From Candidatus Levyibacteriota bacterium (GTDB taxonomy: Bacteria > Patescibacteriota > Microgenomatia > Levybacterales > UBA12049), in NCBI GenBank assembly GCA_016199085.1, contig JACQHJ010000006.1, positions 1 through 59,130 of the forward strand: a stretch of 59,130 nt of DNA, read 5' to 3'. Position 1 is the stretch's first letter. Each line of letters begins with the position of its first letter. A program made the position numbers and the translations under genes. The notes under the pieces are model-generated. The model searched no databases and had not been told where the DNA came from. It saw nothing but the letters and a program-made list of their open reading frames with translations. Positions 12,944 through 59,130 of this stretch are shown here, piece after piece.

Positions 12944-15436
12944 ATGAAATTATTAAACCTATTAAATAAAACTATTGAGTACTCCTTTTATCTTCTCTTC
13001 TTTTTAGTCCCTCTCGCTCTAACCGGAGACACTTCTGAGCTTTATGAATTTAATAAACTTTGGGTAACCTTTATTTTAACAATAATAATTGGAACTGCCT
13101 GGATTTTAAAAATGGTAGTAAAAAGGGAGTTTCGAATTCAAAAAACTCCTCTAGATATACCAATTGCCATATTTACGGTTTCTCTTATTCTTTCAACGAT
13201 CTTTTCGTTAGATACTCATACTTCTTTATGGGGATATTATTCAAGGTTTAATGGAGGACTTTTTTCAATGCTTTCATATATCTTTTTATACTATGCCTTT
13301 GTCTCAAACTACAAAGATCTAACCAGAGACGAGGAAGAAAAAGAGATAAAGGCCTCCCAAATACTTTTGTTTCTAGGGGCAGTTTCTTTGTTTTTTGCAG
13401 GAAACTTTATTGCAGCACAAACAGTCAAAATGGGGGGAACCTCAACTATTCCTTTTCAGATGTTAATTTCTCTAGTTACCGCAATTTCTTCTTTGGCAAT
13501 TTTTGCAAAAGCAATAAAAGGAAGCTTTTTAATCAAATCCTTCTTTGCAATTTTGACTTCTGCCGCAGTCGTAGTTTTATGGGGACTTCCCTCGCATTTC
13601 GGCTATGATCCAACGTGTTTACTGTTTAGGGGAACTTTTGATGTTTCCTGTTGGACAGTTGATTTCCAACCTAAAATAAGAGTCTTTTCAACATTGGGAC
13701 AGCCCGCTTGGCTGGCTGCATATCTTGCCGCCTTAATTCCCTTAATAACTGCAATTTTTATTAATTTTCTAAAAGAAAGGAAACTTTCCCCTAAACAAAA
13801 TCCTTTCAAAAACTACAATCTTTTCTACAGCACGTTTCTTTTTCTTTTTATCGCAGTCTCTTACTTAATGCTTTTATATACTCTTTCAAGAGGCGCTGTC
13901 ATAGCGATCTGGATTGAGATTTTGCTTTTGGCAGCTTTTTACTTTTGGTTTTATGTTAAACCAAGGCTTACCAAACAAAAGATTGCAGTTGATTTTAAAA
14001 TAGCAGTTGCTCTACTTATAACAATAGCCGCCATTACTTTTTTCAACGGACAACCATTTGGATTTTTGGATATCTTCACTTTTAAAGGAATTCAAGAAAA
14101 ACTTACAGTTAAGCCCGCGGGACAAACAAACCAGCCAACAAAACCAACCCCTACTCCCGTACCAGCCTCAACAGGAGAGCTAGGTGGAACGGATTCGGGT
14201 ACGATCAGGTTATATGTTTGGAGAGGTGCGGTTGATATTTGGAAACACTATCCTATTTTTGGCTCAGGACTTGAGACCTATGCCTTTGCCTATTATCAGT
14301 TCAAACCCCAGGGGCACAACTTAACTTCCGAATGGAACTATTTATATAACAAGGCTCATAACGAGTTTTTAAATTATCTGGCAACAACCGGGACACTTGG
14401 CATAGCCTCCTATCTTTTTCTTATCGGCTCATTTGTATTTATCTCCCTAAAACACCTAATGACAAGGCTTAAGAATCCAACCAAAGAAGACCTTTTAATC
14501 TATGCACTTTTATTAGGATATTTAGGAATTCTGATTACCAATTTCTTTGGCTTTTCGGTTGTATATATCAATATTTTGTTTTTCATGTTTCCCGCTTTTG
14601 TTTTTATTCTTGCCCAAAAAATAGACTTTGAAAAATCATATCAGCTTTCTTTTAACACAAATAAAACTGAGGTTTATGCTCTTTCCAATCCGCAAAAGGC
14701 TGTCTTTATTGTAGTTACTCTTGTATCTCTCTATCTTCTTTTTGTCCTGGCAAGATTCTGGCAGGCTGACAGATACTATTATCTTGGCTACAATCTGGAC
14801 AGAAGCCAGGATTATCAAAATGCATATCAGTATCTTCAGCTTGCAGTCGCCACAAGGCCAAGCGAACCGGTTTTCAGAGACGAGTTGGCGTTAAATAACG
14901 CAATCGTCGGCTCGGCAATTCTCTATCAAAACCAAACGCAGGAAAAACCCGATGAGCAAACCGCAAAATTTGGGCAGCAATTAATACAAAACGCAATTGA
15001 TACAAGCGATAAGCTTATATTGGAACATCCAAGAAATGTCGTGTTTGTAAAAACAAGGGTAAGAATCTTTTATACACTTTCCCAGATTAATCCTGGGTAT
15101 GCTGTCCAAGCTTTGGATGCAGTTAAAAAAGCAGCCATTCTTGCACCCACTGACGCCGATGTCTCGTATAATCTTGGGGTTTTGCTTGGCCAAAACGGAG
15201 ATATTGAGAAAGGCATTAAGGAGCTTAAGCGCACTTTAGAGCTAAAACCGGATTATACAAACGCACATTATGCGCTCGGCATCTTCTACCATCAGCTTGC
15301 AATTAACGACAAAGATCAGGTTGTAAACAGGGAATTTGCTCAGAAAGCAATTGATATTATGAAAAACCTTATAAAAACATATGGTCCAAACGAACAGGCG
15401 CAAACCGCAATCGATACATGGGAAAAACAGCTTTAA
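12944..15436 (+). CDS. O-antigen ligase/polymerase-like polytopic membrane protein with C-terminal TPR repeats
   Basis: 830 aa with more than 10 TM helices. It has a Wzy_C-like loop (LSRGAVIAIWIE...HNEFLNYL) and C-terminal TPR-like repeats (YNLGVLLGQNGDIEKGIKELKRTLELKPDYTNAHYALGIFY). Confidence 0.7.
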   Translation: MKLLNLLNKTIEYSFYLLFFLVPLALTGDTSELYEFNKLWVTFILTIIIGTAWILKMVVKREFRIQKTPLDIPIAIFTVSLILSTIFSLDTHTSLWGYYSRFNGGLFSMLSYIFLYYAFVSNYKDLTRDEEEKEIKASQILLFLGAVSLFFAGNFIAAQTVKMGGTSTIPFQMLISLVTAISSLAIFAKAIKGSFLIKSFFAILTSAAVVVLWGLPSHFGYDPTCLLFRGTFDVSCWTVDFQPKIRVFSTLGQPAWLAAYLAALIPLITAIFINFLKERKLSPKQNPFKNYNLFYSTFLFLFIAVSYLMLLYTLSRGAVIAIWIEILLLAAFYFWFYVKPRLTKQKIAVDFKIAVALLITIAAITFFNGQPFGFLDIFTFKGIQEKLTVKPAGQTNQPTKPTPTPVPASTGELGGTDSGTIRLYVWRGAVDIWKHYPIFGSGLETYAFAYYQFKPQGHNLTSEWNYLYNKAHNEFLNYLATTGTLGIASYLFLIGSFVFISLKHLMTRLKNPTKEDLLIYALLLGYLGILITNFFGFSVVYINILFFMFPAFVFILAQKIDFEKSYQLSFNTNKTEVYALSNPQKAVFIVVTLVSLYLLFVLARFWQADRYYYLGYNLDRSQDYQNAYQYLQLAVATRPSEPVFRDELALNNAIVGSAILYQNQTQEKPDEQTAKFGQQLIQNAIDTSDKLILEHPRNVVFVKTRVRIFYTLSQINPGYAVQALDAVKKAAILAPTDADVSYNLGVLLGQNGDIEKGIKELKRTLELKPDYTNAHYALGIFYHQLAINDKDQVVNREFAQKAIDIMKNLIKTYGPNEQAQTAIDTWEKQL

Positions 15437-32953: not shown

Positions 32954-33973
32954 TTACTTCTTGGCTATACTTCTTTTGTAGAGTTCGATGTTTTCAAGCG
33001 CAACCCCTGTTCCCCTGACTACGCAAAGCAGTGCGTCCTCCGCAACATGACAAGGAACTCCGGTTACTTTTGTCATAAGCTTATCAAAGTTAGTCAGAAG
33101 CGATGTTCCCCCGCTCATGACGACTCCCTTGTCAATGATGTCGCTTGCCAGTTCAGGCGGAGTTTGTTCCATAACACCTTTCACTGCCGAGATTATATCC
33201 ATAAGTACGGAAAGTATTGCTTCATTTACCTGGCCTTCATTTAATTGAATTGTTCTGGGAAGCCCCGTGATAGAATCTCTTCCTCTTATTTCCATAACCT
33301 TTTGATCGGATACCTTTTTTTCATCAATCAGTGCATTTCCCATTTCTATTTTTATTATCTCTGAAGTTCTTTCACCAATGAGAAGATTAAACTTCTTTTT
33401 GACATAGAGTGCAATAGCCTCGTCTATCTTAGTTCCTCCTACTCTTACAGAGTCATGGACTACTACTCCGCCAAGAGAAATAACGGCTGATTCGGTAGAT
33501 CCTCCGCCAATATCGACTACCATGTGTCCAGCAGGCTGGGCAATGGGAATTTTGGCTCCAATGGCTGCTGCCAGAGGTTCTTCTATTAAATAGGCAACTT
33601 TTGCCCCCGCTGCCATAGTTGCGTCAAGAACAGCTCTTCTTTCCACCTGGGTGATACCTGAGGGAATGCAAATCATAACTTCGGGTTTGAAAAAACGCGC
33701 CTTTCCGGTTGCCTTATCAATAAAGTAGGAAAGCATTGCCTCTGTTATGGTATAGTCAGCGATTACCCCGTCTCGTAGGGGTCGCATGGCAACAATATTT
33801 CCGGGGGTTCTACCAAGCATATCTTTTGCCTCTTTACCAACGGCAACTACCCTATTTTCTTCTGCAGTAACTGCTACAACTGTCGGTTCATTTAAAACAA
33901 TTCCTTCACCTGCCAGATAGACAAGCGTATTGGCTGTTCCAAGGTCAATTCCGATTCTTTTTGATAATGGCAT
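32954..33973 (-). CDS. mreB: Actin homologue MreB (copy 2, canonical length, not linked to mreCD)
   Basis: IGIDLGTANTLVY, MVVDIGGGSTESAVISLGG and MSGGTSLL. Length 339 aa. Confidence 0.93.
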   Translation of the reverse strand: MPLSKRIGIDLGTANTLVYLAGEGIVLNEPTVVAVTAEENRVVAVGKEAKDMLGRTPGNIVAMRPLRDGVIADYTITEAMLSYFIDKATGKARFFKPEVMICIPSGITQVERRAVLDATMAAGAKVAYLIEEPLAAAIGAKIPIAQPAGHMVVDIGGGSTESAVISLGGVVVHDSVRVGGTKIDEAIALYVKKKFNLLIGERTSEIIKIEMGNALIDEKKVSDQKVMEIRGRDSITGLPRTIQLNEGQVNEAILSVLMDIISAVKGVMEQTPPELASDIIDKGVVMSGGTSLLTNFDKLMTKVTGVPCHVAEDALLCVVRGTGVALENIELYKRSIAKK

Positions 33974-35318: not shown

Positions 35319-35988
35319 ACCTTTCCTTAACTTTTAATAAGACATCTTTCCAATCCTTGCAATAGATATGATTTGGTTTTTTAGCCATATCTTGATGGTA
35401 ATAATAGAGAAAAACCGTTCCTTTATAGTCATTTGGCATGTTGGCTATTAGGCTGTAACTATCATCCACTATCCCGGAAACGTAGGGGAAAAGATATTTC
35501 AGTACTTTGACTTTCCACAGAGATCCCTTACTGTAATGTACGTATCTTGGCCTGGTAATAATTGGCGCTTTTGGGAAGTTATGTTTTTCCAGCCATTTTC
35601 TTGTTCCTTCTATAGCTCTCTCCGGCCTGATAGTTAAGTAACAGACAATGGGAACTATTTTATTAATTTTATTGACAATATGATTTGAATTTTCTATTAA
35701 AGGGAGGAATTCCTGCACTCTACTCGTACTTCTTGCTTTCTTCATCCATGCCTGAGCCTGAGCGTTTTTGAAATGAGGGTATCTTTGCAGAATCTTGTAT
35801 TTATTAATTATTTCACTGGCAGTGAGATTGTCGGGGTTGCCAAATTTTTTCGTCAGATTCTCGACCCAATACAAAGCAGTGAAGGAAAGAGTATCATCAA
35901 TATCCAAGGCCAAGCCGTGGAGGTCAGATTTCTTAAGCTTTTCTTTTAATTTGGATATTTTCACAATTCTCCTACTTTGGCTTCGCAT
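35311..35988 (-). CDS. HAD-superfamily hydrolase-like protein
   Basis: HAD motif I DxDxT is present (LALDIDDTLS), and the C-terminal GIVDDS is consistent with motif IV. The remainder is unassigned. Confidence 0.45.
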   Translation of the reverse strand: MRSQSRRIVKISKLKEKLKKSDLHGLALDIDDTLSFTALYWVENLTKKFGNPDNLTASEIINKYKILQRYPHFKNAQAQAWMKKARSTSRVQEFLPLIENSNHIVNKINKIVPIVCYLTIRPERAIEGTRKWLEKHNFPKAPIITRPRYVHYSKGSLWKVKVLKYLFPYVSGIVDDSYSLIANMPNDYKGTVFLYYYHQDMAKKPNHIYCKDWKDVLLKVKERFT

Positions 35989-36709
35989 AGACGAGTAGCC
36001 TTTGAAATGTTGTTCCAGGAGGCCAGCAGGTCTGCAGAATGAGGGTTTCCTCTCCTACGTTTTGAGCATCTACTATGTGCGATACATCTTCAGGACTGAC
36101 CACTTCTGATCCACTTACTATATAGTCGTACCGCTTATTTTGATAGAAAACTACCACTTCATCACCCGGCACAAGATCTTTTAGAAGATAAAAGATGGCA
36201 TTATATCTTCCAATATTCCAGAAATTGTCGGTTGAATGGGCAAAGAGATAAATATTGCCGGTAATTCCTGGAAAAACAGTTCCCTGTGCGTGGGCAACTC
36301 CCTGGGCAAGGATTGGCAGGAATTCCTCCTGATTGCCAGGATTTACATTAGCAAAGACCTTTGCTGAGGCCCCAATCTTAGGTATTAATAGGCCGAACTT
36401 GGTGTCTTTTGCTACAAGTACCTGTTCTTTTGCACCAAGGAGAACTTGGGCAAAATTATCTACTCCGGATGAAATTTGTTGATCTTGAGGCTGAATTTGA
36501 TCAGCAGAAGTTTCATTTGAAGTTGTATCTGGCAAACTAGGAGTCTGACTGATAACGTATTTCACTCCCCTAGCCTGAGCTATGCGGTAGTTAACTTCAA
36601 AGTATAAAGCAGGACCAAAAGTCGCTATTGCAGCGTAAATGGCAAACAAGACCAGGAAGTTGCCAACTGTTCGAAGTATAAGGAATTTAATAATTTCTTG
36701 TTTTTTCAC
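35972..36709 (-). CDS. Sortase-family transpeptidase
   Basis: It has an N-terminal TM anchor, the catalytic His context IYLFAHS, the Cys motif LILQTCWPPGT and the downstream Arg (QRLLVYA). Confidence 0.8.
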   Translation of the reverse strand: MKKQEIIKFLILRTVGNFLVLFAIYAAIATFGPALYFEVNYRIAQARGVKYVISQTPSLPDTTSNETSADQIQPQDQQISSGVDNFAQVLLGAKEQVLVAKDTKFGLLIPKIGASAKVFANVNPGNQEEFLPILAQGVAHAQGTVFPGITGNIYLFAHSTDNFWNIGRYNAIFYLLKDLVPGDEVVVFYQNKRYDYIVSGSEVVSPEDVSHIVDAQNVGEETLILQTCWPPGTTFQRLLVYAKPK

Positions 36710-37407: not shown

Positions 37408-37477
37408 AAAGCTCTTAGGCTTCTTGTATACAATTTACCTCTTGAAATTAAGCTTACAAAATGGCATTATTACATTT

Positions 37478-38221
37478 ATGGATTCAGATGAGAAATTAAC
37501 CAAAGCCCAAAAAAGAGAACTTCGAAAACTTGAATGGGAACAAAAAGCCCAAAGCCAAGCAAAAACGGCGCAATATAAAAAAATCGGTCTTTGGATAGGA
37601 GTTACCTTTGCCGTAATCTTAGGAATTTTCGGCCTTGCAATGATAGTCAACTCCCCTACTACGTCTTCCGGAGGGGGTCTTCAAGCACCAGCTCCAACCA
37701 AAGAAGACATATATACCAAAGGAAATCCTAATTCAAAAGTAGTCGTCGTTGAATACGGAGATTACCAGTGCCCTGCTTGCGCACAATACCAGCCGATTGT
37801 CAAAGCTCTTTTAGAAGAATATAAAGACAAAGTATATTTTGTTTACAGGGATTTTCCTCTTATTAATTCTCATCAAAACGCACACATTTCGGCAAGAGCT
37901 GCGTTTGCAGCCAATAAACAGGGAAAGTTCTGGGAAATGTATGACGCTTTATATGAAAATCAGACCGAATGGGCAACCAATCCAAATGCAGAAACAATAT
38001 TTACAAATTATGCTTCAAACCTTGGGTTAAATGCGGATAAATTTAAAAACGATTTAAACTCAAATGAGGCTAAAAGCTTTGTAGATAACGCTTTAAGCAA
38101 TGCTACTTCAATTGGATTAAATTCAACTCCAAGCTTTTTTATTAACGGGTCCAAGATTGAAAACCCAAGCTCATATGACGAACTCAAAGCTCTGATTGAT
38201 AATGAACTTAACAAAGAATAA
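37478..38221 (+). CDS. DsbA-family thiol:disulfide oxidoreductase (membrane-anchored)
   Basis: It has a TM anchor, a thioredoxin-fold CxxC (YGDYQCPACAQY) and the cis-Pro region (LNSTPSFFING). The start is set at the ATG (MDSDEK), not at the TTG of the ORF track. Confidence 0.8.
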   Translation: MDSDEKLTKAQKRELRKLEWEQKAQSQAKTAQYKKIGLWIGVTFAVILGIFGLAMIVNSPTTSSGGGLQAPAPTKEDIYTKGNPNSKVVVVEYGDYQCPACAQYQPIVKALLEEYKDKVYFVYRDFPLINSHQNAHISARAAFAANKQGKFWEMYDALYENQTEWATNPNAETIFTNYASNLGLNADKFKNDLNSNEAKSFVDNALSNATSIGLNSTPSFFINGSKIENPSSYDELKALIDNELNKE

Positions 38222-41836: not shown

Positions 41837-42514
41837 TTATTTAAAGATCTCGCTCTTTAAGGATTTTGCTAATTTTGTGTAAAACTTCTCCATCTCTTTA
41901 CTGTTAAAAGGAATAAACATTCTAGGCATGTCTTGATACTCGTTTACTTTTAAAAATATCTGTGAAAGGCGTATCGGGTCAATGTCCCAATCAAACTTTG
42001 CTTTTGCAAGCATACGTATGCCATTCACATCAAATTTATTCTTTACAGATAATAAAAATAGGTCAATAAAATCTCGTGTTCTGGCTCTGGTTGAGATTGT
42101 ATGAATTTTATTAGCTGCAATGTCTATTTCACTATCAACCGCGATATTCTTCCATTTTATTCCTTTTTCAATTCTTGGATATGGATAAAAATTAAAGTCT
42201 ACTTTTAATAAATCTTTGTTTTTATATGTTAAGAGAAAGGATTGAAGACCTAAAAAGGGATTGTGATCTATCTTAACAAGACCAAGTAGTCTTTTATTAG
42301 CATCAAGAAATTGCCTGATTTTGGGAAGATAGATTTCTTTCTCTGAAAAAAGATCAAGATCATGGGATTCACGGTGGTGCAAATAGAATGCCGACAGAGC
42401 TGTTCCACCGGTTAAATAAAAGTTTTTGGTTAGGTACGGATTTTGTGAAACCAGCTCCAGAAATTGCTTCTGTCTGGGTTCAAACCCGGCTCCTTTGTCC
42501 ATGGTTTTTGCCAT
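41837..42514 (-). CDS. AbiEii/AbiGii-family nucleotidyltransferase-like protein (second copy)
   Basis: FYLTGGTALSAFYLHHRESHDLDLFS and KIHTISTRARTRDFIDLFLL. Confidence 0.7.
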   Translation of the reverse strand: MAKTMDKGAGFEPRQKQFLELVSQNPYLTKNFYLTGGTALSAFYLHHRESHDLDLFSEKEIYLPKIRQFLDANKRLLGLVKIDHNPFLGLQSFLLTYKNKDLLKVDFNFYPYPRIEKGIKWKNIAVDSEIDIAANKIHTISTRARTRDFIDLFLLSVKNKFDVNGIRMLAKAKFDWDIDPIRLSQIFLKVNEYQDMPRMFIPFNSKEMEKFYTKLAKSLKSEIFK

Positions 42515-49897: not shown

Positions 49898-50530
49898 ATG
49901 AAGGCTTTTCTAGAACCCTTAGTAATCATCGCCTCTTTTATTACCGTTTTTATCTGGCAAGAAAGCCCCTTAAAGGATTATACTGTCCAGCTTTTAGGTC
50001 TTTTTATAGTCTTGTATTTTATAGTTTCGGCAAGAAAAGGAGGAAAAGGCTTTTTAACTTTGGGAGGAGAAGGATTTATGGGTGTTTTTATCTTAAACAC
50101 GCTTATTTTTCTTCTCATTTTCTCAACAGGAGGCTTACAAAGCGCTCTTTTCTTTGTTCTTTACTTCCTTTCATTTGGCATAGCTTTTGTCTTTGATCCT
50201 AAAAATGTTTTTGTTTTTATACTCGGAGGTATACTTATCTTTTATCCCGAGATCCAAATGGGAGATTTGACGAGTAACCTATTAAAGATTGGCTCCTTAG
50301 CTTTAATTTCTCCTCTTGCCTACTTTTTCGGAAGAGAATACAGAAGATCTGATCAGCAAGATGAAAAAGTTAATGCCCTTAAAGATCGAACCAAAGAAGC
50401 CGCAGATACGATATCAGAAGACATTGAAGAAGTCATAGAAGAAGAAAAGGGAAGCCTAAAAGAGAAAGACGTAGAAAAGCTAAACGAAGTCTTGGAAGAA
50501 ACAGAAGATCTTCGAAGCGAGTCGAAATGA
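49898..50530 (+). CDS. Polytopic membrane protein with an acidic coiled-coil tail; first gene of the surface cluster
   Basis: 210 aa with about 5 TM helices and a C-terminal Glu/Asp/Lys-rich tail of about 60 aa. Its stop overlaps the next gene's start (ATGA at 50527-50530). Confidence 0.45.
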   Translation: MKAFLEPLVIIASFITVFIWQESPLKDYTVQLLGLFIVLYFIVSARKGGKGFLTLGGEGFMGVFILNTLIFLLIFSTGGLQSALFFVLYFLSFGIAFVFDPKNVFVFILGGILIFYPEIQMGDLTSNLLKIGSLALISPLAYFFGREYRRSDQQDEKVNALKDRTKEAADTISEDIEEVIEEEKGSLKEKDVEKLNEVLEETEDLRSESK

Positions 50531-51261
50531 ACAGCTTTAAATATTTCTTGTTTTTAGTAATTTTACCCCTTATCTACCTTTCTTTATATATTGGGGCAAG
50601 CTTTGCCCAGACAATGTCAAACGACGACTACACAGTCCAAATGGGAAATTTAAACAGCATTTCAGGAAGAGCTTCGGGGTCGGGTAAAAACCTAACTTTC
50701 ACCTCGGGAGAAACAGGAGCGCATCTTTTCACAGGCACAAACTATAAAGTCAGGGCAGGTTTTCAATATATTAACTCCATTATTCCCTTTACTTTCTCAA
50801 TCTCGAGTATCTTTATTGATTTTGGCATAATCAACCCGACCACTCCGGTTACAAGAACGAATGACTTAACGGTTTCCTTTGGCTCTGCCCACGGATACCA
50901 GGTAACAGCTTCGCAAAACCACAATCTAAGGGCAGACGCAACCGGATTTGATATTCCGCCAACAACCTGTGACTCCGGCACCTGTACGACAACAACTGCC
51001 GCAGCCTGGACAAGCTCCCTAGTCTACGGCTTTGGCTACAGATGCGACAACATAACCGGGACTGATTGCGACAGCGGTTTTGCAACTGCTGATTTTTATA
51101 AGCAGTTTATCTCTTCTCCTTCGGCGGTTTCGGTAATGAGCTCGTTAAATGTTGGAAGAAACAGAAAAGGACGAATAACTTATAAAGTAAACGTCGCCGG
51201 AACCCAACCTTCAGGACTATATACAAATATAATTAACTATATAGCAACAGCTACATTTTAA
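50527..51261 (+). CDS. Secreted beta-rich subunit A (WxL-like architecture, 4 Cys)
   Basis: It has a signal peptide ending ASFAQ. It is Thr/Ser/Gly/Asn-rich and contains the internal motif HGYQVTAS and two Cys pairs (TTCDSGTC, YRCDNITGTDC). The extreme C-terminus reads GLYTNIINYIATATF. Confidence 0.55.
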   Translation: MNSFKYFLFLVILPLIYLSLYIGASFAQTMSNDDYTVQMGNLNSISGRASGSGKNLTFTSGETGAHLFTGTNYKVRAGFQYINSIIPFTFSISSIFIDFGIINPTTPVTRTNDLTVSFGSAHGYQVTASQNHNLRADATGFDIPPTTCDSGTCTTTTAAAWTSSLVYGFGYRCDNITGTDCDSGFATADFYKQFISSPSAVSVMSSLNVGRNRKGRITYKVNVAGTQPSGLYTNIINYIATATF

Positions 51262-52265
51262 TGAAAAACAATATATTTTTAACAACAATTATAACGCTAA
51301 GTTTTATAGCCTTTAGCTTATTTTTGATAAGAGAAATATCTTTCGCCCAAAACGTTTCCATAGGAGTTTATCCCCCTATTATGCAGATGGATACTACGCC
51401 ACCGGCCAATCCTAAAGCTGACTTTTTCTTAACTAATCCGTCTGACCAAAGCCTAGAACTTAGTATTTCCTACAAACCTTTTAAACCAAAAGGAACCAAA
51501 AACGGCGAGATCGAGTTATCCGATGATCTGTCTTCCTTTCCCGATCCTTTGTTTGTAAACAGGGTTAAGATTTTAGAAGAAGACGAACCGGTAAAATCTG
51601 TTGTCCTTTCTCCAAAGCAAAATAAAAAACTTACGCTTGAATTACAGCTTCCACCTAACGAGCAAAAAGGAGATTATTACTTTACGATTCTTTTTAGCAG
51701 TAGGCCAACAACGAATATAAAAGCAAACTCAAGCCTTTTGTATCCGACAATCGGCATGAATGTCTTACTTACGGTTGGGCCTAAGGGAAAAACCGAAGGT
51801 TATATCTCAAGGTTTAGCGTTCCCCTCTTTGTCGACAGCGGTCCGGTTGTCTTTAATGTAGAAATCGCAAACAGAAGCGATCATTTCATTTCCCCAACCT
51901 CTGAAATTACAATTAAAAACCTGACAACGGGTAAAAAAGATATTGTCAGTTTACTTCCTGTTAATATTCTGGCTAATACGGTAAGGGCCATTCCCGACTC
52001 GCTGCAGGCTGAAGTAGGTTCAAGCGAATACGAGAAAATAAGAGACATTGTTGAAAGACAGGATTCTCCTGTAGCTGTATATCCCAAAAAATTTCTCTTG
52101 GGCTTTTACAACGCGACCTTAAATGTTTCCCTAGAAGAAACGCAAACCAAATTTACCAAATCCATTACCTTTTTTGCTTTTCCTATAAGTTTATTACTTG
52201 GCATAGTTGTCCTTTTAGGGATAGTTGTCTTTATAGTGTTAAGGGTAAGAAAGAAGATTTCCTAA
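51261..52265 (+). CDS. Membrane-anchored two-domain beta-sandwich-like partner A (DUF916/DUF3324-like architecture)
   Basis: It has a signal peptide ending SFAQ. Motifs are LQLPPNEQKGDYYFTILF and NRSDHFISPTSEITI. A C-terminal TM helix is followed by an RVRKKIS tail. Its start overlaps the upstream stop (TAATG). Confidence 0.55.
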   Translation: MKNNIFLTTIITLSFIAFSLFLIREISFAQNVSIGVYPPIMQMDTTPPANPKADFFLTNPSDQSLELSISYKPFKPKGTKNGEIELSDDLSSFPDPLFVNRVKILEEDEPVKSVVLSPKQNKKLTLELQLPPNEQKGDYYFTILFSSRPTTNIKANSSLLYPTIGMNVLLTVGPKGKTEGYISRFSVPLFVDSGPVVFNVEIANRSDHFISPTSEITIKNLTTGKKDIVSLLPVNILANTVRAIPDSLQAEVGSSEYEKIRDIVERQDSPVAVYPKKFLLGFYNATLNVSLEETQTKFTKSITFFAFPISLLLGIVVLLGIVVFIVLRVRKKIS

Positions 52266-52394
52266 AGTTAGTCTTAGTTTGTAAGGAAAATTACAAAAAC
52301 TATTTGACAAATGTCATTTAATTGTTAATACTTATTCTATTAGTATTATTGTGTAGATATTTAATCATTTATTGAATATTCTAGGCTCAGTTAT

Positions 52395-53813
52395 ATGAAG
52401 AAATTATTGCCTCTTTTGATCCTAATCCTCATGGTAGGATTTTTTAGTGTCCCAAAAGCAAATGCAGCGTCCCTTAGTAACGTCAAAGACACCCTTACAA
52501 CCTCAAGGCCTTCGCCCTCCTCTCCGTTAAATGCAGACCAGGCTGCAGGCGCAACACAAATCAGTATTGTTGATAACGGATCAATTTTCCTTGCTTCAGA
52601 CAGCGCAATATTAGACCTTGATACGGGGCAAACTATTGAAAGCGTAAATGTTTCTTCTATGTCTGCACAAATTAGTGGCAGTCCTAACAGCAGAAACATA
52701 TATTTGAATTCAAGCCTTACCAACACGCACCATAAAGGAACTGCTGTTTGGACAGGGATAACGGCAACGCATACAATTCAATTTACAGTCAACACGTCTA
52801 TTCCTAGTGGCGGAAAAATAAAAATCACCTTCCCAGGTGCTGCATCAAATATTGCATCACCCTCTGCAGCCACTTTTTCGTTTAATAATCTCCAGACTAG
52901 TGCTGTTAAATGCTATCCTACCTCTGCCTGTGACTCTATTTCTGTTTCAGCACCAAGCATAACCTTAACAACCAACGCTACTCAGACAACCGGAACAATA
53001 ATTTATGTACTAATTGGCTGCACAACTCAATCAACAGGAGCTTGTACTGCTTATGCACCGGCCCTAATCAATCCTACCAAGATAAACAGTGCCGGCTCAT
53101 CCGATCAGTGGAGAGTTTTGATAGAGACTTTGGATGCTTCAGATATTGTCTTGGATTCTTCTCCTATTAAGATAGCAACCATTGACTCTGTTCAGGTCCA
53201 AGGAATTGTCGAACCGTCAATTACTTTTACTATCACAGGTCTTGCCCATGGAACAAACATTACGACCCAAAATGCAAGCTGTACGGGAGCAGATATTACC
53301 AATCCGGGCTCTGGACTTGACGCAACAGCCACTTTTGTAAATTTAGGAGGACTTTCAAACGGAAATATCAATATCTCAGCTCAGGAACTCAGTGTTTCAA
53401 CGAATGCATTTTCGGGTTATGTTATTACTGCCACTTCTTCCGGCCGTTTTATTAATCCAGCCACAGGTTTTTGGATAACCGATGCCAACGGAGGAGACGG
53501 TTTGACGGCTAACGATACACCAGCGCCTGCAGTCCTTCCTGCAACCGGTAACCCTGCTTTTGGAATACATCCTTGCGGAGCTGACGTAGCAAGCGGCACT
53601 TGGGCCAATGCGGCAACTGCGTTTGGATCAGGTGCCAAATACTCAAACCCATGGAATACCGGAGTCAACGGCTACTATGCCACTCTGGCAAGCTATAGCC
53701 AGCCTGCAAGTGCTCGAAAAACAGAAGTTGAATACGCGGGAACAGTTGCAGCTACAACTCCTGCAGGAACTTATACGACAGTCTTTACCTTTGTTGCAAC
53801 AGGAACTTTTTAA
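52395..53813 (+). CDS. Secreted beta-rich subunit B (large, 6 Cys)
   Basis: It has a signal peptide ending PKANAAS. It is 472 aa and extremely Thr/Ser/Ala/Gly/Asn-rich. It contains the internal motif SGYVITAT. The extreme C-terminus GTYTTVFTFVATGTF aligns position by position with subunit A. Confidence 0.55.
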   Translation: MKKLLPLLILILMVGFFSVPKANAASLSNVKDTLTTSRPSPSSPLNADQAAGATQISIVDNGSIFLASDSAILDLDTGQTIESVNVSSMSAQISGSPNSRNIYLNSSLTNTHHKGTAVWTGITATHTIQFTVNTSIPSGGKIKITFPGAASNIASPSAATFSFNNLQTSAVKCYPTSACDSISVSAPSITLTTNATQTTGTIIYVLIGCTTQSTGACTAYAPALINPTKINSAGSSDQWRVLIETLDASDIVLDSSPIKIATIDSVQVQGIVEPSITFTITGLAHGTNITTQNASCTGADITNPGSGLDATATFVNLGGLSNGNINISAQELSVSTNAFSGYVITATSSGRFINPATGFWITDANGGDGLTANDTPAPAVLPATGNPAFGIHPCGADVASGTWANAATAFGSGAKYSNPWNTGVNGYYATLASYSQPASARKTEVEYAGTVAATTPAGTYTTVFTFVATGTF

Positions 53814-53816
53814 AAA

Positions 53817-54800
53817 ATGAGGACACTGTCCAAAAATTACTTAAATAAACTTTTAATAACAGTAGCCTTGGTAGCTTGTCTATCCATAGCTTCAACCGCT
53901 TTTGCCCAAGAAATACAAAGAACTTATACCATCATTAACCCCGCCATCGTGCACACCTTAAACCCGGGACAAAGAGCGGAAGGAGTAACCAAAGTCATAA
54001 ACCAAAGTAACGTTGAATTAACATTTAAATTAAACGTTCAGGATTATATTGTCACCGACACAAAAGGAACGCCCAATATTCTCCCCCCGGATACTTTGAA
54101 TTCAAAATATTCTGCAGCAGCCTGGATAGGAGTAAGTCCGAGCACATTTACCCTAAAACCAGGAGCAACCCAAGTTGTCAGTTACTTTATCCAAATTCCA
54201 CCCAATGCAGCACCGGGAGGACACTATGCAGCCATTGTCTATGCTCCGACAACTGTCGCCCAAGAACAGGCAACTGGAGGCACTGTTAATACTCAAGTCG
54301 GTTCCCTCTTCTATCTAACGGTAAACGGCCCTGTTAAAGAAAAGGCAGAGGTTTCAAAGTTTGAAACAAACGGTTTTTCCGAATACGGGCCAGTGAAGAT
54401 ACTAACGCAAGTCAAAAACATGGGAGATTTGCATATAAATCCCAAAGCCAAAATTACCGTCTCAGGACTTTTTTTTAACGAGAAACAGGATCTTCTCTCC
54501 CAAAACATCTATCCCCAGACAGCCAGGGATTTTGAAAACACTTTCGGAAGCCTTTTCATGCTTGGAAGATATAAGGCTGATTTTGTAGGATCATACGGCA
54601 AGGAGAATAACCTACCTCTGGTTGCAAGCTTGTACTTCTGGGTCTTTCCATGGAGACTGGCGCTTGTAATAACGCTTGCAGTCATAGCCATAATTCTTGG
54701 CACCATCTACCTTAAAAGAAAAAAGGAAAAGGGTTCTAAACCACAAGATGAGTCCAGGGACGAGGCTACAAAACCATACAAAGAAGAAAAAGCCTCCTAA
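53817..54800 (+). CDS. Membrane-anchored two-domain beta-sandwich-like partner B (paralogue of 51261-52265)
   Basis: It has a signal peptide ending TAFAQ. Motifs are IQIPPNAAPGGHYAAIVY and NMGDLHINPKAKITV. A C-terminal TM helix is followed by a Lys/Glu-rich tail. Confidence 0.55.
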   Translation: MRTLSKNYLNKLLITVALVACLSIASTAFAQEIQRTYTIINPAIVHTLNPGQRAEGVTKVINQSNVELTFKLNVQDYIVTDTKGTPNILPPDTLNSKYSAAAWIGVSPSTFTLKPGATQVVSYFIQIPPNAAPGGHYAAIVYAPTTVAQEQATGGTVNTQVGSLFYLTVNGPVKEKAEVSKFETNGFSEYGPVKILTQVKNMGDLHINPKAKITVSGLFFNEKQDLLSQNIYPQTARDFENTFGSLFMLGRYKADFVGSYGKENNLPLVASLYFWVFPWRLALVITLAVIAIILGTIYLKRKKEKGSKPQDESRDEATKPYKEEKAS

Positions 54801-54842: not shown

Positions 54843-55250
54843 ATGTTAAGCAGTATTGAAGCATTAGAAGGGCAAATGCTACGTCCTTATAAAAGAAGAG
54901 CATATATGTCGGAAAGACACGTAACCCTTGACCCGGCAGATGAAGCAGTTTTAAGGGCAAAGCTCGTAAAATCGATTCTGGACGGCAAGGATCTTTTAAA
55001 AAGACCGGGCAGAAGAGAAATTGCCATGATTGATCCAAATATATCCTCCGACCTACTCCCCTCTAACCTTGCCCCGAGCGAGGTTGTAGTTTGGGAAAGA
55101 CAGCTTGGAAGCCAGTTTTCAAGAGTCTATCTCCCCTATCAAGCCGAAACGATCAGGGAAAGACTCGAAATGGGCTTGGACATAGCCCAGGTTATAGTAA
55201 ACGTAGACCAAAGAAATATAAGACCGGTTGCGCTGCTTTCCGGTAAATAA
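54843..55250 (+). CDS. Hypothetical protein (GC-richer orphan)
   Basis: 135-aa ORF, Arg/Leu/Glu-rich, with no TM helix or signal peptide. A TATAAT box (54826-54831) lies 11 nt upstream of the ATG. Confidence 0.3.
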   Translation: MLSSIEALEGQMLRPYKRRAYMSERHVTLDPADEAVLRAKLVKSILDGKDLLKRPGRREIAMIDPNISSDLLPSNLAPSEVVVWERQLGSQFSRVYLPYQAETIRERLEMGLDIAQVIVNVDQRNIRPVALLSGK

Positions 55251-55344: not shown

Positions 55345-56406
55345 ATGAACCATATAACGCATTTTGATAAAAGACTTGAGCAAATCCCTAATAAGATTTG
55401 GTCTAAGATCGCTTATGTAGATGAACTGAAAGGCAGATGGAGTGCGGGAGTAAATCTTAGTCCTGAAGTTCTAAAAAGACTTAAAAGATCAGTTTTAGTC
55501 ACGTCTACAGGAGCCTCTACCCGCATTGAAGGAGGAAAGCTTTCCGATGAAGAAATAGAAAAAATGATACGGGGAATATCAATAGAAAAATTTAGTAACC
55601 GCGATGAGGCTGAAGCTCAAGGTTACTTCGAGCTGTTAAGCAATGTATTTAATGCCTGGGATAGCTTAAAATTAAATGAAAACACTATAAAACATTTCCA
55701 CCAAGAACTTTTAAAATATACCCAAAAAGATCTATTACACAGAGGAAGATACAAAAGCAAAGAAAACCAGGTAAGAATGATTGGGCCAGAAGGAGAAGAT
55801 ATGGGAGTACTTTTTGATACTACTCCCGCCTACTTAACTCCAAAAGAAGTAAACGAACTCGTAGAATGGACAAATCAAGCTTTTGAAAGTAAAAAATACC
55901 ATCCCCTACTTATTATAGGAAATTTTATTGTTGAATTTCTAAGTATCCATCCTTTTGAAGATGGAAATGGCAGATTGTCAAGAATTTTAACCAATTTATT
56001 GCTTTTAAAACAAGGTTATTTATATACGCCTTATGTCTCCCATGAAAAATTGATTGAAGACAGTAAGGCGGATTATTATCTAGCTCTTCGAAATAGCCAG
56101 AAGACTTTTAGAACCGGAAAAGAAGACCTATCTTTTTGGCTTGATTTTTTCCTAAAAATACTTTCAATACAATCCGAGCTGGCAATAGAACTTATGACAA
56201 GCGAAAATATTGAGAGTATGCTTTCCTCAAAGCAGCTTGCCGTTTGGCAATATTTGCAAGAAACAAATGATGCATCCCCTATGGAAATAGCTAAAAAGAT
56301 AAATATAGCTAGAATTACCGTTAACCAAGTATTGAATAAGCTTTTAAAGATCAAAAGAATTGAAAGGATAGGCCAAGGATCAGGTATTAGGTATAGAAAG
56401 AAATGA
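55345..56406 (+). CDS. Fic-family protein (AMPylase-type) with a C-terminal winged-HTH
   Basis: It has the canonical Fic motif HPFEDGNGRLSR. The C-terminal region (LAVWQYLQETNDASPMEIAKKINIARITVNQVLNKL) looks like a wHTH. Confidence 0.9.
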   Translation: MNHITHFDKRLEQIPNKIWSKIAYVDELKGRWSAGVNLSPEVLKRLKRSVLVTSTGASTRIEGGKLSDEEIEKMIRGISIEKFSNRDEAEAQGYFELLSNVFNAWDSLKLNENTIKHFHQELLKYTQKDLLHRGRYKSKENQVRMIGPEGEDMGVLFDTTPAYLTPKEVNELVEWTNQAFESKKYHPLLIIGNFIVEFLSIHPFEDGNGRLSRILTNLLLLKQGYLYTPYVSHEKLIEDSKADYYLALRNSQKTFRTGKEDLSFWLDFFLKILSIQSELAIELMTSENIESMLSSKQLAVWQYLQETNDASPMEIAKKINIARITVNQVLNKLLKIKRIERIGQGSGIRYRKK

Positions 56407-56679: not shown

Positions 56680-57576
56680 TTAATAACCCATAAAGTATTT
56701 GTGATGCAGCGGGTGTTCCCTCTTAAACTTATCTCCAAAAAAGATTACAAGTTTGTTTCTATAAATAAAGGAGAAACGCTCCGGCCAGAGCTTAACAAGG
56801 AGTATAATAATCAGGATAAGGATTGGTATAGCAAGCCAAAGTGGTCCGAATGACAAAGACGTAAAGAAGTCCCTAATCTTATTTAGAAACTGCCTTAGCC
56901 ATTCTAAGAATTGCTCCCATAAAGATAAAGATTTAAGGGTCAGCTTTCTCTCCGGCTCAAGAGATGGTTTCTCATCTAACACCGCTGTTGCATAAAGCTG
57001 GTAAGTGCCTGCCTTAACGTCTTTTATGACAAATTGATAGTATCCTGTTTCATCCGCAAATGTTGTATACGTCTTATTCCCAAAATGTAAGGTAACTAAA
57101 GCATTTGGCATTGAATATCCAAAAGCCACAGCCGAGCTTCCGGCCTCAATCGTTGTACGCAAAAGTCCAAGAGTTGGAGGAAGAAAAATGTCTTTAATTG
57201 TCGTGTTTTCTTTTATAGGAGGTACTGTCATACAGCTGTATGACTCACCTAGCCTCCTAAAGTCAACGGCATCAAAGCAAAAGCGGGTAAGACCAGCCTT
57301 AACCAGGACTTCCGAGATGGTAAAGTAGCCGTTTTGATCTGCAGTCGTTGCCCTAAGATATACTCCGTCTGTATATAAAACTATGGAAGCAAAAGGAGCT
57401 ATGTAGCCTGATAGACTTAAATAAAAATCTCCCAGCTTTCCATAGACGGTTGAACTATGACTACCCTGAGGAAGCTTATATTGAGCAAGCGTTACTCTTG
57501 CATACAGGAAAAACAAAAAGATTGCAAAGCTAAATAGGATCAATAAAAATAAGGCCTTGGGCAGAAATTTTTTCAT
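56680..57576 (-). CDS. Surface protein with two CarboxypepD_reg/Ig-like beta-sandwich repeats and a C-terminal TM segment
   Basis: It has an N-terminal signal/anchor ending VTLAQ. The repeats are TTADQNGYFTISEV and FADETGYYQFVIKDVKAGTYQLYA. A TM helix (LWLAIPILILIIILLV) is followed by a basic/aromatic tail. Confidence 0.5.
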   Translation of the reverse strand: MKKFLPKALFLLILFSFAIFLFFLYARVTLAQYKLPQGSHSSTVYGKLGDFYLSLSGYIAPFASIVLYTDGVYLRATTADQNGYFTISEVLVKAGLTRFCFDAVDFRRLGESYSCMTVPPIKENTTIKDIFLPPTLGLLRTTIEAGSSAVAFGYSMPNALVTLHFGNKTYTTFADETGYYQFVIKDVKAGTYQLYATAVLDEKPSLEPERKLTLKSLSLWEQFLEWLRQFLNKIRDFFTSLSFGPLWLAIPILILIIILLVKLWPERFSFIYRNKLVIFFGDKFKREHPLHHKYFMGY

Positions 57577-57903: not shown

Positions 57904-58509
57904 GTGAATATGTATACTTTACTGAAACCATTATCAGCAAGAGAGGAACTTATTAAAAAAAGAATATTTATCTTTACTCCCTATGATTTTGAGCGTATTT
58001 TTAACCTTCCGAAACACAAAGTTAAGTATTTTTTGGAGAAAGAAAGCAGTACTGGATTATTTTTACGGCTGAAAAAAGGTTTATACAGCTTAAAAACAGA
58101 TTTACCGGGAGAGGAAGAAATTGCCAATCGCCTTTACCAACCTTCTTATATTTCATTTGAATATGCGCTAGCTTATTTTAATATACTTCCTGAAATGCCC
58201 TATTTGGTAACTTCCGCTACGACAAAACCAACCAGAGAATTTATCATAGAAAGCAAAATCTTTTCGTACCTAACAATTAAAAGAAATGCCTATACAGGTT
58301 ATATTCTTGTAAAACAAAATGGGAAGTCGTTTTTAATAGCCGAGCCTGAGAAAGCCTTGGTTGATTATCTCTATTTTGTAGTTTTAGGCAAGAAACCTAC
58401 AAATGACCGTCTGAATATTTCCTTGCTAAACAAAGAAAAACTTTTTAACTATGCCTTACTCTTTGGCAGAGATAAACTTACAAAGCTTATAAAGGAGCTC
58501 TATGATTAG
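57904..58509 (+). CDS. AbiEi-family antitoxin/transcriptional regulator-like protein
   Basis: About 200 aa. An N-terminal wHTH-like region (FTPYDFERIFNLPKHKVKYFLEKESSTGLFLRLKKGLYSL) and a C-terminal domain (PSYISFEYALAYFNILPE...AEPEKALVDYLY) are typical of AbiEi_4. An ATG at 57910 preceded by AAGGGTG is the more likely start. Confidence 0.7.
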   Translation: MNMYTLLKPLSAREELIKKRIFIFTPYDFERIFNLPKHKVKYFLEKESSTGLFLRLKKGLYSLKTDLPGEEEIANRLYQPSYISFEYALAYFNILPEMPYLVTSATTKPTREFIIESKIFSYLTIKRNAYTGYILVKQNGKSFLIAEPEKALVDYLYFVVLGKKPTNDRLNISLLNKEKLFNYALLFGRDKLTKLIKELYD

Positions 58510-59130
58510 CCAGGATGAAATTAAAAAAATTATAAATAAAAATCAGACTACCCAGTTAAACATCAGGCGTGAATATTTGCAACATTTGTTTCTGTCGTAT
58601 TTTTATAAACAGCCTCAGACTGAGGCTATTTATTTCAAGGGAGGAACGGCACTTAGAGTTATCTATCAAAGTCCGCGTTTCTCTGAAGATTTAGATTTCT
58701 CAACTGGTAACGATATTACAACAATTGAGAATGTAATAATACAGACTTTGACAGAGATTGAAAAGACAGGTGTAAATACTCAATTAAAAGAAGCAAAAAA
58801 AACCAGCGGTGGGTATTTGGCAGCTGTTGTTTTTGACTTCCTTGGACAAACAATCTCAATTCTTTTGCAAATTTCGCTTCGGCAAGGCAAGCAGAAAGGA
58901 GAAGTTGTTACTATTGTAAGTGATTTTATTCTTCCTTATATTGTTATAAGTTTATCAAGACAACAATTGATTGATGAAAAAATGCAAGCTCTTTTAAGTA
59001 GGCAAAAGCCAAGAGACTTCTACGATTTATACTTTATTCTACGCTCAAATCTACTTCTTCCCGAAAAAAAGGCTATATTATCCAAGGCTCTTAAAATACT
59101 GCAAGATTCAGACCTTAACTTCGAGAAAGA
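58502..59130 (+). CDS. AbiEii-family nucleotidyltransferase toxin (3' end beyond the window)
   Basis: Hand translation gives MISQDEIKK...IYFKGGTALRVIYQSPRFSEDLDFST...RQKPRDFYDLYFIL. It overlaps the AbiEi-like stop by 8 nt. It is absent from the ORF track because no stop codon falls within the window. Confidence 0.8.
   Translation, partial: MISQDEIKKIINKNQTTQLNIRREYLQHLFLSYFYKQPQTEAIYFKGGTALRVIYQSPRFSEDLDFSTGNDITTIENVIIQTLTEIEKTGVNTQLKEAKKTSGGYLAAVVFDFLGQTISILLQISLRQGKQKGEVVTIVSDFILPYIVISLSRQQLIDEKMQALLSRQKPRDFYDLYFILRSNLLLPEKKAILSKALKILQDSDLNFEK

Follow-up and report, generated by a model that had tools for sequence, protein, structure and literature searches.

A 59,130-nucleotide (nt) stretch of contig JACQHJ010000006.1 from Candidatus Levyibacteriota (GCA_016199085.1), hereafter the window, carries at positions 49898-54800 a cluster of five genes that likely encodes the Levybacteria version of the Pam pilus, a fiber assembled by donor-strand exchange without an usher. 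Levybacteria are uncultured Microgenomatia of the candidate phyla radiation (CPR; Patescibacteria), and we know of no host-attachment apparatus in them. The assignment supplies a concrete candidate for host contact, along with a conserved set of marker genes easily found beside leuS. The locus is best filed as a divergent Pam variant that lies outside the curated NCBIfam families. It adds to current knowledge a core/accessory modularity, an extra membrane gene (g1), a fixed leuS-adjacent position, and homology of the tethered chaperones to DUF916/WxLIP, which hints at a wider monoderm superfamily of chaperone-subunit systems. A previous interpretation of the same DNA, made without database searches (the sequence-only reading), had proposed a dedicated surface-fiber or surface-complex system in which secreted subunits are combined with membrane-anchored partners made of two β sandwiches; synteny, predicted folds, and homology all support that proposal. 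Its view that no such system had been described in CPR bacteria is outdated: Pam pili were described in 2026, NCBIfam models for them exist, and g2 and g4 match these models.

The five genes are a real and coherent feature, present as five co-directional open reading frames (ORFs) of 210, 244, 334, 472, and 327 amino acids (aa) whose coordinates and lengths in the ORF list are those first claimed. All five products are annotated as "hypothetical."

49898-50530, + strand: g1, polytopic membrane protein of 210 aa whose C-terminal tail is acidic
50527-51261, + strand: g2, 244-aa short secreted subunit, PamT-like
51261-52265, + strand: g3, 334-aa membrane-anchored chaperone-like partner
52266-52394, + strand: 129-bp intergenic region ahead of the g4/g5 module, with a promoter-like TTGACA-17-AATACT at 52304-52332
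52395-53813, + strand: g4, 472-aa long two-domain pilin
53817-54800, + strand: g5, 327-aa second membrane-anchored chaperone-like partner, a paralog of g3

Secreted subunits and their similarity to Pam pilins

A preprint of 2026 describes usher-less Pam pili of CPR bacteria, in which donor-strand-exchange pilins are combined with membrane-anchored PapD-like chaperones (10.64898/2026.03.03.709456). It reports solved structures of thin filaments made by Ca. Mycosynbacter amalyticus (Saccharimonadia), a parasitic CPR bacterium, and names their subunits PamA and PamB (10.64898/2026.03.03.709456; PDB 25PZ, 25QA). These pilins have a signal peptide, a nine-strand β-sandwich N-terminal domain, and paired cysteines, and their linker strand is donated to the truncated immunoglobulin (Ig)-like C-terminal domain of the neighboring subunit; the conservation of this donor strand and of its groove is stressed (10.64898/2026.03.03.709456). 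The pam operon further encodes PamE, the short PamT consisting only of the C-terminal domain, the transmembrane (TM)-anchored RbmA-like PamR, and PamC and PamD, two PapD/FimC-like chaperones with C-terminal TM helices, with no usher. A tail-fiber-like protein is its constant neighbor, ATP-synthase genes also lie near it, and distant homologs (~21% identity) are reported in Microgenomatia (10.64898/2026.03.03.709456).

Searches with the NCBIfam models recovered a relationship of g2 to NF058579 ("CPR-type pilus protein PamT"; E = 7.8e-7) and NF058581 ("Pam pilus system pilin subunit"; E = 1.6e-5), and of g4 to NF058581 (E = 2.3e-6), the latter over model positions 2-148 of 148 in an alignment that ends at the C terminus; the NF058581 match of g2 likewise covers the full model up to the C terminus. 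Both subunits accordingly possess, by their NF058581 matches, a C-terminal domain homologous to that of the Pam pilins. The relationship extends to their families, for which we scanned 41 g4-family, 38 g2-family, and 42 partner-family members: NF058581 matches 38 of the 41 and all 38 of the first two sets, respectively (best E = 8.8e-10 and 7.8e-10), and NF058579 matches 37 of the 38 g2-family members (best E = 8.9e-12). Authentic WxL proteins, which are also rich in Thr, Ser, and Gly, do not match the Pam models even at an E value of 10, and this argues against a composition artifact in the matches of g2 and g4. The two subunits had been characterized as almost entirely Thr/Ser/Gly/Asn/Ala; they are indeed rich in these residues, which nevertheless make up only 47% of g2 and 54% of g4.

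Several features that the sequence-only reading had singled out in g2 and g4 were recovered. Both begin with a hydrophobic signal-like N terminus that leads into an AXA-like site (ASFAQ ahead of T in g2, KANA ahead of A in g4), as expected of secreted pilins with Sec signal peptides; signal-peptide calls for g2 to g5 rest on hydrophobicity and such sites. Paired cysteines are present, four in g2 (148/153/173/181) and six in g4 (173/179/209/217/296/394). The internal motif G-Y-x-[VI]-T-A-[ST] occurs as GYQVTAS at residue 123 of g2 and GYVITAT at residue 341 of g4, and the C termini (NYIATATF in g2, FTFVATGTF in g4) conform to a common [YF][IV]AT[AG]TF pattern. Far beyond what chance would give, g2 aligns with the C-terminal domain of g4 in BLASTP (E = 4e-6), g4-family HMM (E = 4e-9, covering g2 residues ~78-244), and hhalign (96.3%, E = 1.6e-9) comparisons. 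The similarity is confined to the C-terminal third of g4, so that g2 is not a smaller copy of the whole protein. The earlier notion of one two-gene unit occurring twice therefore captures the paralogy of the modules, but is too simple in that g2 matches only the C-terminal domain of g4 and in that g4 and g5 are accessory (see below).

In terms of its parts, g2 comprises ~60 N-terminal residues, a conserved β-strand-like segment (IIPFTFSIS, residues 85-93), and a pilin C-terminal domain (residues 96-244) with the four cysteines. In g4, the signal peptide is followed by an N-terminal β-sandwich domain (residues ~28-262) with two cysteine pairs, a linker with a putative donor strand ending in SITFTITGL (residues 263-283; nt 53181-53243), and the C-terminal pilin domain (residues 307-472; nt 53313-53810). 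The AF2 model of g4 (pLDDT 84.1) predicts two all-β domains separated by a low-confidence hinge (266-270) and a strand (276-282); as modeled, it has the organization of a two-domain pilin, with a β sandwich, a conserved linker strand, an Ig-like C-terminal domain, and paired cysteines. Within the g4 family, conservation is highest in the linker (0.80 over residues 263-283), as against 0.71 in the C-terminal domain and 0.63 in the N-terminal domain, a pattern like that described for the Pam pilins. A Pfam check of g2 and g4 returned no match to the WxL, spore coat U, TasA, S-layer, sortase-signal, or usher families. No informative match came from sequence searches with g2, g4, or the profiles A1 and A2 of a PDB set that lacked the PamA/PamB entries 25PZ and 25QA.

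Membrane-anchored partners with chaperone-like folds

The partners g3 and g5 are paralogs (BLASTP E = 2e-13; 24% identity) with the features previously ascribed to them, namely, a signal peptide ending in FAQ (ISFAQ ahead of N in g3, TAFAQ ahead of E in g5), a C-terminal TM helix, and a basic tail. With these two, signal-like N termini are present in all four of the proteins predicted to be exported (g2 to g5). Of the two sequence motifs proposed for the pair, the first does not hold in its original form, exact agreement being limited to [LI]Q[LI]PPN. In g3, the signal peptide precedes a DUF916-like β sandwich (residues ~41-149; nt 51381-51707), a second β sandwich (residues ~180-306), the TM helix (residues 309-333; nt 52185-52259), and the basic tail. 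The AF2 model (pLDDT 90.7) contains a signal helix, two β-sandwich domains, and a TM helix, in agreement with the two β-sandwich-like halves initially suspected; the folds are neither those of solute-binding proteins nor those of lipoproteins.

Foldseek searches with the g3 model retrieved as best PDB matches the Enterococcus faecium WxLIP structures 9i25_C and 9i1y (E = 1e-11), which are genuine WxLIP proteins matched by annotated plasmid WxLIP at E = 3.5e-42 (9i1y) and 6.9e-42 (9i25_C). Next came RbmA, followed by the chaperones CsuC, CfaA, Caf1M, SafB, DraB, and EcpB (E = 1e-9 to 1e-7), which together cover archaic, alternative, and classical chaperone-usher pili and give substance to the analogy with pilin-plus-Ig-fold-chaperone systems drawn before. 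Taken with the TM helix and basic tail of both g3 and g5, the g3 model and its matches describe a PapD/FimC-like chaperone with a C-terminal TM helix. The likeness to PapD is structural only, as the partners have no match to PapD-family Pfam models at E <= 1.

At the sequence level, the sole Pfam signal among the cluster proteins is PF06030 (WxLIP_PGBD, i.e., DUF916), found in g3 at E = 2e-4 (21.8 bits versus a gathering score of 27.3) and in g5 at E = 0.031. The same model matches 39 of the 42 partner-family members (best E = 1.1e-9) and is also present in the precomputed annotation of many homologs. When the partner family was compared with real WxLIP proteins, hhalign gave 90.2% (E = 1.5e-6), and 94.9% (E = 4.5e-8) for the N-terminal domain alone, versus 0.25-0.28% for reversed controls. 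Homology of the partner N-terminal domain to DUF916/WxLIP is hence well supported by profile comparison. A profile search retrieved 6,906 representatives of 50%-identity clusters for the partner superfamily at E <= 1e-3; the best 150 are all close relatives, and the more distant ones may include Firmicute or Saccharimonadia proteins.

Conservation and modularity of the locus in Levybacteria

We compared 72 Levybacteria loci, which represent about 70 species. The homologs are all annotated as "hypothetical," and those with a named source come from Candidatus Levybacteria/Levyibacteriota. The order leuS (on the opposite strand), g1, short subunit, partner is essentially invariant. In 71 of the 72 loci, the short subunit gene lies directly beside a partner gene, as the proposal of a subunit-partner system had predicted of related genomes. 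The full string of leuS (opposite strand), g1, g2, g3, g4, and g5 followed by a convergent gene of ~300 aa is found in 23 loci. Where the sequence continues beyond a long pilin, a g5-type partner follows it in 31 of 32 cases, and g5 is probably dedicated to g4.

The short subunit occurs universally, and no other protein of the cluster is as well conserved (60-81% identity for the homologs listed). The long-pilin module (g4 plus g5) is absent from about 20 related species, and four species possess two or three copies of the long pilin (L006, L012, L054, and L059). Minimal loci (L028, L036, L039, L050, and L035) consist only of g1, the short subunit, one partner, and the convergent TM protein. 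The core of the system is therefore the short subunit with one tethered partner, usually accompanied by g1, and the g4-g5 module is accessory; the existence of both minimal and expanded loci indicates that this module has been gained, lost, and amplified.

Two observations bear on the arrangement of the genes in the window itself. A script run on the sequence confirmed the ATGA overlap of the g1 stop with the g2 start and found a TAATG overlap between g2 and g3. The second module does sit behind its own intergenic region with a TTGACA box at 52304, as had been pointed out; with AATACT as the second hexamer, the site in this 129-bp gap is only a 10/12 match to the consensus in our promoter scan, and the 25 promoter-like sites found, versus 17.8 +/- 3.5 expected in shuffles, amount to a slight enrichment only. 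HMMs of the subunit and partner families detected no further copies of either in the window.

Relationship to the WxL/Csc clusters of Firmicutes

The sequence-only reading had likened the locus to Firmicute WxL/DUF916-DUF3324 clusters, an analogy that holds for the N-terminal domain of the partners, as shown above, and lacks statistical support for the subunits and for DUF3324. As a comparison set, we used seven authentic Firmicute WxL clusters from plasmids; a synthetic motif-based WxL bait, which had no PDB match, served to retrieve these real clusters, after which only real sequences were used. Their WxL and WxLIP proteins match PF13731, PF06030, and PF11797 at 1e-43 to 1e-51. The partners of the Levybacteria locus contain the DUF916/WxLIP_PGBD domain (PF06030), while their second domain has no Pfam match to DUF3324/WxLIP_HBD (PF11797) and an hhalign score of 0.09%, which is noise; structural alignment alone spans both domains. 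PF13731 does not match g2, g4, or any of the 41 g4-family members, and the pilin C-terminal domains aligned with 16 authentic WxL domains at 0.5-0.7% in hhalign, a noise level given controls of 0.1-1.7%. The Trp positions of WxL are Tyr/Phe in the g2 and g4 subunits. In both of these weak alignments, GY.[VI]T falls on the first GW.L, and in a greedy alignment the C-terminal Y....[YF][IV]AT falls on Y..tltWtL; the motifs agree in register only, which is a lead rather than evidence. The five-gene cluster encodes neither a small LPXTG protein (CscD) nor a helix-turn-helix (HTH) regulator. Classification of the locus as a WxL cluster was rejected, as the WxL and DUF3324 features of such clusters were not found in it.

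Proteins with DUF916 only have been listed from Ca. Nanosynbacter lyticus TM7x (TM7x_00820, 329 aa), a Kazan-group CPR bacterium, and Thermomonospora curvata (Hassan et al.; PMC10599100 Supplementary Table S5). That listing implies that the tethered-chaperone family is present in Saccharibacteria and Actinobacteria, where it was not interpreted as pilus related (PMC10599100). The Pam preprint mentions neither WxL nor DUF916 (10.64898/2026.03.03.709456), and our literature search found no paper linking DUF916 with Pam and none describing 9i25 or 9i1y. The Pam-WxLIP link, absent from the preprint, is the newest lead of this analysis.

Alternative explanations

The main rival to a Pam-type pilus is a non-filamentous surface complex of the WxL/Csc type, in which the DUF916-type partner binds and presents the small and the large subunit one to one at the cell surface without polymerization, as is currently envisaged for the WxL clusters of Firmicutes. 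The homology of the partner N-terminal domain to DUF916/WxLIP_PGBD, the ranking of solved E. faecium WxLIP structures as the best matches of g3, and a layout of small subunit, partner, and large subunit like that in Listeria L075 and PMC10599100 would all fit such a complex, as would the roughly 20 species with only a short subunit and one partner and the weak alignments of GYx[VI]T on GWxL and of Y..[YF][IV]AT on Y..tltWtL. However, the subunits themselves have no significant WxL similarity (by PF13731, or by hhalign, which stays at control level) and match Pam pilin models that real WxL proteins do not match, DUF3324 is undetectable by sequence, the cluster has no LPXTG protein, and the homologous Pam proteins are proven filaments. 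The Pam-specific homology of the subunits weakens this rival, which we consider unlikely. A still more skeptical interpretation, to which we assign very little weight, is that unrelated secreted or wall-associated proteins (adhesins or S-layer-like proteins) are merely co-located and that the partners are generic Ig-fold membrane proteins with no role in assembly. In its favor, two-domain Ig-like folds also match RbmA, transglutaminase domains, and CEP192, and the family matches lie below curated thresholds. Such a coincidence is difficult to reconcile with the strict gene order in 72 loci (~70 species), the translational coupling, the paralogous modules, and the co-occurrence of each subunit type with a partner type, or with two independent family links, one to DUF916 and one to the C-terminal domain of Pam pilins, each of which indicates a subunit-plus-partner system.

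Several points count against the Pam assignment itself. The matches to the Pam models are far below the curated NCBIfam cut-offs: 27.8 and 25 bits versus the 55 bits of NF058581 and 28.7 versus the 240 bits of the PamT equivalog NF058579, so that g2 and g4 are distant homologs and not members of the curated families. Neither g3 and g5 nor the rest of the partner family match any Pam-named NCBIfam model. A Foldseek search with the whole g4 protein, against a PDB set without 25PZ and 25QA, yielded generic Ig-like matches only (integrin, ClfA/FnBPA, SafDAA, and CfaB). The short subunit g2 keeps a strand-like segment ahead of its C-terminal domain, whereas PamT is described as having no linker strand. 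No ATP-synthase genes occur among the window ORFs scanned. Finally, filaments have so far been observed in no Levybacterium.

Proposed assembly mechanism and wider implications

For the Pam-type pilus that we favor, the steps of export and of partner folding and anchoring draw on sequence features, predicted folds, and homology, and the later steps on analogy with Pam and chaperone-usher pili. We infer that g2 and g4 would be exported by Sec, their signal peptides cleaved after the AXA-like sites, and their paired cysteines oxidized outside the cell. The partners g3 and g5 would likewise be exported and remain tethered to the cytoplasmic membrane by the C-terminal TM helix, their Ig-like pair acting as a chaperone like PapD, CsuC, or WxLIP. 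By analogy, the chaperone would lend a β strand to the incomplete Ig-like C-terminal domain of a subunit, the likely pairings being g3 with g2 and g5 with g4. Polymerization could then proceed as the next subunit inserts its conserved linker strand (g4 residues ~274-282, SITFTITGL) into the groove in the C-terminal domain of the preceding one, in place of the chaperone strand. In such a fiber, the PamT-like g2 would be the distal or initiating subunit, and the sole fiber subunit in the ~20 species without g4 and g5, with g4 building the shaft; a convergently encoded 298-aa TM protein (see below) may terminate and anchor the fiber, as proposed for PamR. The fiber probably serves to reach a host cell and attach to it.

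The homology of the partners to DUF916/WxLIP ties a new CPR pilus to a large and medically relevant Firmicute surface-protein system whose mechanism is debated. It is conceivable, although we stop short of favoring the idea, that Pam pili, the Firmicute WxL/Csc clusters, and the DUF916 proteins of Actinobacteria are branches of one ancient monoderm superfamily of membrane-anchored chaperones and their subunits. The chaperone half of this idea is well supported; the subunit half, in which the Pam C-terminal domain would equal the WxL domain, is only hinted at by the collinear motif register. If it is true, Pam pili would not be inventions exclusive to CPR bacteria, and strand complementation would serve to chaperone, and perhaps to polymerize, the WxL proteins of Enterococcus, Listeria, and Lactobacillus.

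Neighboring genes

The first gene of the cluster, g1, is translationally coupled to g2. Residues 1-125 contain ~4-5 hydrophobic segments and the tail is acidic, in line with what had been read from the sequence; the protein has no Pfam or NCBIfam family match. Orthologs with conserved motifs occupy the same position in the 72 related loci, 58 having been found. Downstream of the cluster lies a convergent neighbor.

56680-57576, - strand: 298-aa protein with two Ig-like/CarboxypepD_reg-type domains between a signal peptide and a C-terminal TM helix, and with a conserved LHH..GY tail in the cytoplasm

Pfam recovered CarboxypepD_reg (3.8e-7) and Big_6 in this protein, which matches no Pam model. 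Of the 72 related loci, 39 have a gene of this kind (~300 aa) downstream of the cluster; it is convergent in all but L030 and follows immediately in L001, L002, and L028. Its architecture resembles that of PamR without detectable homology, and on architecture only we tentatively consider it a candidate PamR-like base or anchor. Between g5 and this gene, the window has a 135-aa hypothetical gene (54843-55250) and a Fic-domain gene (55345-56406; Pfam E = 1.6e-15), which look like a local insertion because L001 and L002 have neither there.

In the relatives, a giant ORF of 1,300 to over 3,900 aa is found beside the cluster, outside the window studied here. The following instances combine tandem Phage_int_SAM and Peptidase_S74/G2 domains.

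L052, 9052-13107: giant ORF
L057, 9552-13787: giant ORF
L065, 9344-13681: giant ORF
L032, 2057-6112: giant ORF
L002, 13312-19416: giant ORF
L001, 13018-16005: giant ORF

The Phage_int_SAM domains are N terminal, the Peptidase_S74/G2 domain is a tail-fiber intramolecular chaperone, and complete copies end in [FL]NW[IWL][IV][IV]N. There is no detectable similarity to the pilin C-terminal domain. The giant ORF probably corresponds to the "tail fiber-like protein" of pam operons.

Among the window ORFs scanned, there are no usher, type IV pilus, or LPXTG subunit genes, as had been stated for the surroundings of the cluster. The largest ORF (12944-15436) encodes an 830-aa Wzy_C plus TPR protein (a Wzy-like ligase) and not an usher. 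At 12 kb upstream of the cluster is a gene for a DsbA-like thioredoxin (37424-38221, + strand; E = 1.6e-35), which could oxidize the paired cysteines of the pilins. A sortase gene (35972-36709, - strand; E = 2e-20) lies 14 kb upstream and is probably unrelated to the cluster because the subunits have no LPXTG signal. The window also contains two MreB genes (11747-12850, - strand, E = 2e-127; 32954-33973, - strand, E = 6e-134), near which lie a gene for a PBP2-type transpeptidase (8295-10061) and that for the 830-aa Wzy_C/TPR protein. An AbiEii toxin gene is present at 41837-42514 (- strand; Pfam E = 5.2e-18), and at the right end of the window, 57904-58509 and ~58520-59130 appear, from the motif FKGGTALR, to form a putative AbiEi/AbiEii-like pair. 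Counting this presumed pair, the region appears to hold several toxin-antitoxin or defense-type insertions.

Comparison with known systems

With the chaperone-usher pili (Pap/Fim, Csu, CFA/I, and Caf1), the Levybacteria locus shares the two-Ig-domain chaperone fold (Foldseek E = 1e-9 to 1e-7 for g3) and subunits that combine an Ig-like domain and a candidate donor strand with a conserved C-terminal strand running to the free C terminus. It differs from them in having neither an outer membrane nor an usher, no usher gene being found among the large window ORFs scanned, and in a chaperone that is membrane tethered rather than soluble. The donor strand would be an internal linker, as in the Pam structures, rather than an N-terminal extension. 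Moreover, the partners have no sequence match to PapD-type Pfam families, so that no PapD-type chaperone is recognizable by sequence.

The likeness to the WxL/Csc clusters lies in an identical partner architecture of ~330-340 aa with a signal peptide, two Ig-like domains, a TM helix, and a basic tail (PMC1534035, PMC9772566, PMC10599100). It extends to the combination of a small subunit that is approximately the shared domain only with a large subunit bearing that domain at its C terminus, and to a partner for which insertion of a strand into the subunit is predicted. In contrast, the Levybacteria subunits lack the two Trp-x-Leu motifs and any significant Pfam or hhalign match to WxL, DUF3324 is undetectable by sequence in the partners, and the cluster has no LPXTG protein or HTH regulator. 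WxL proteins are, furthermore, thought to be wall-bound monomers and not fibers.

From the Pam pilus, the locus is set apart by a single long pilin as against three (PamA/B/E) and by a short subunit that heads the operon and is both universal and better conserved than the other proteins, the long pilin and its chaperone being accessory. It also has the conserved polytopic g1, to which nothing corresponds in the accessible Pam description, and a fixed position beside leuS/comEA/comEC instead of ATP synthase. What the two have in common is a CPR host, the lack of an usher, signal-peptide pilins with paired cysteines, a short subunit of the C-terminal-domain type alongside a two-domain pilin with a conserved linker, and a pair of paralogous chaperone-like proteins that each combine two Ig-like domains with a C-terminal TM helix. 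A TM-anchored two-Ig-domain protein encoded nearby, tentatively likened to PamR, and the tail-fiber-like gene beside the cluster in the Levybacteria relatives may be further features in common.

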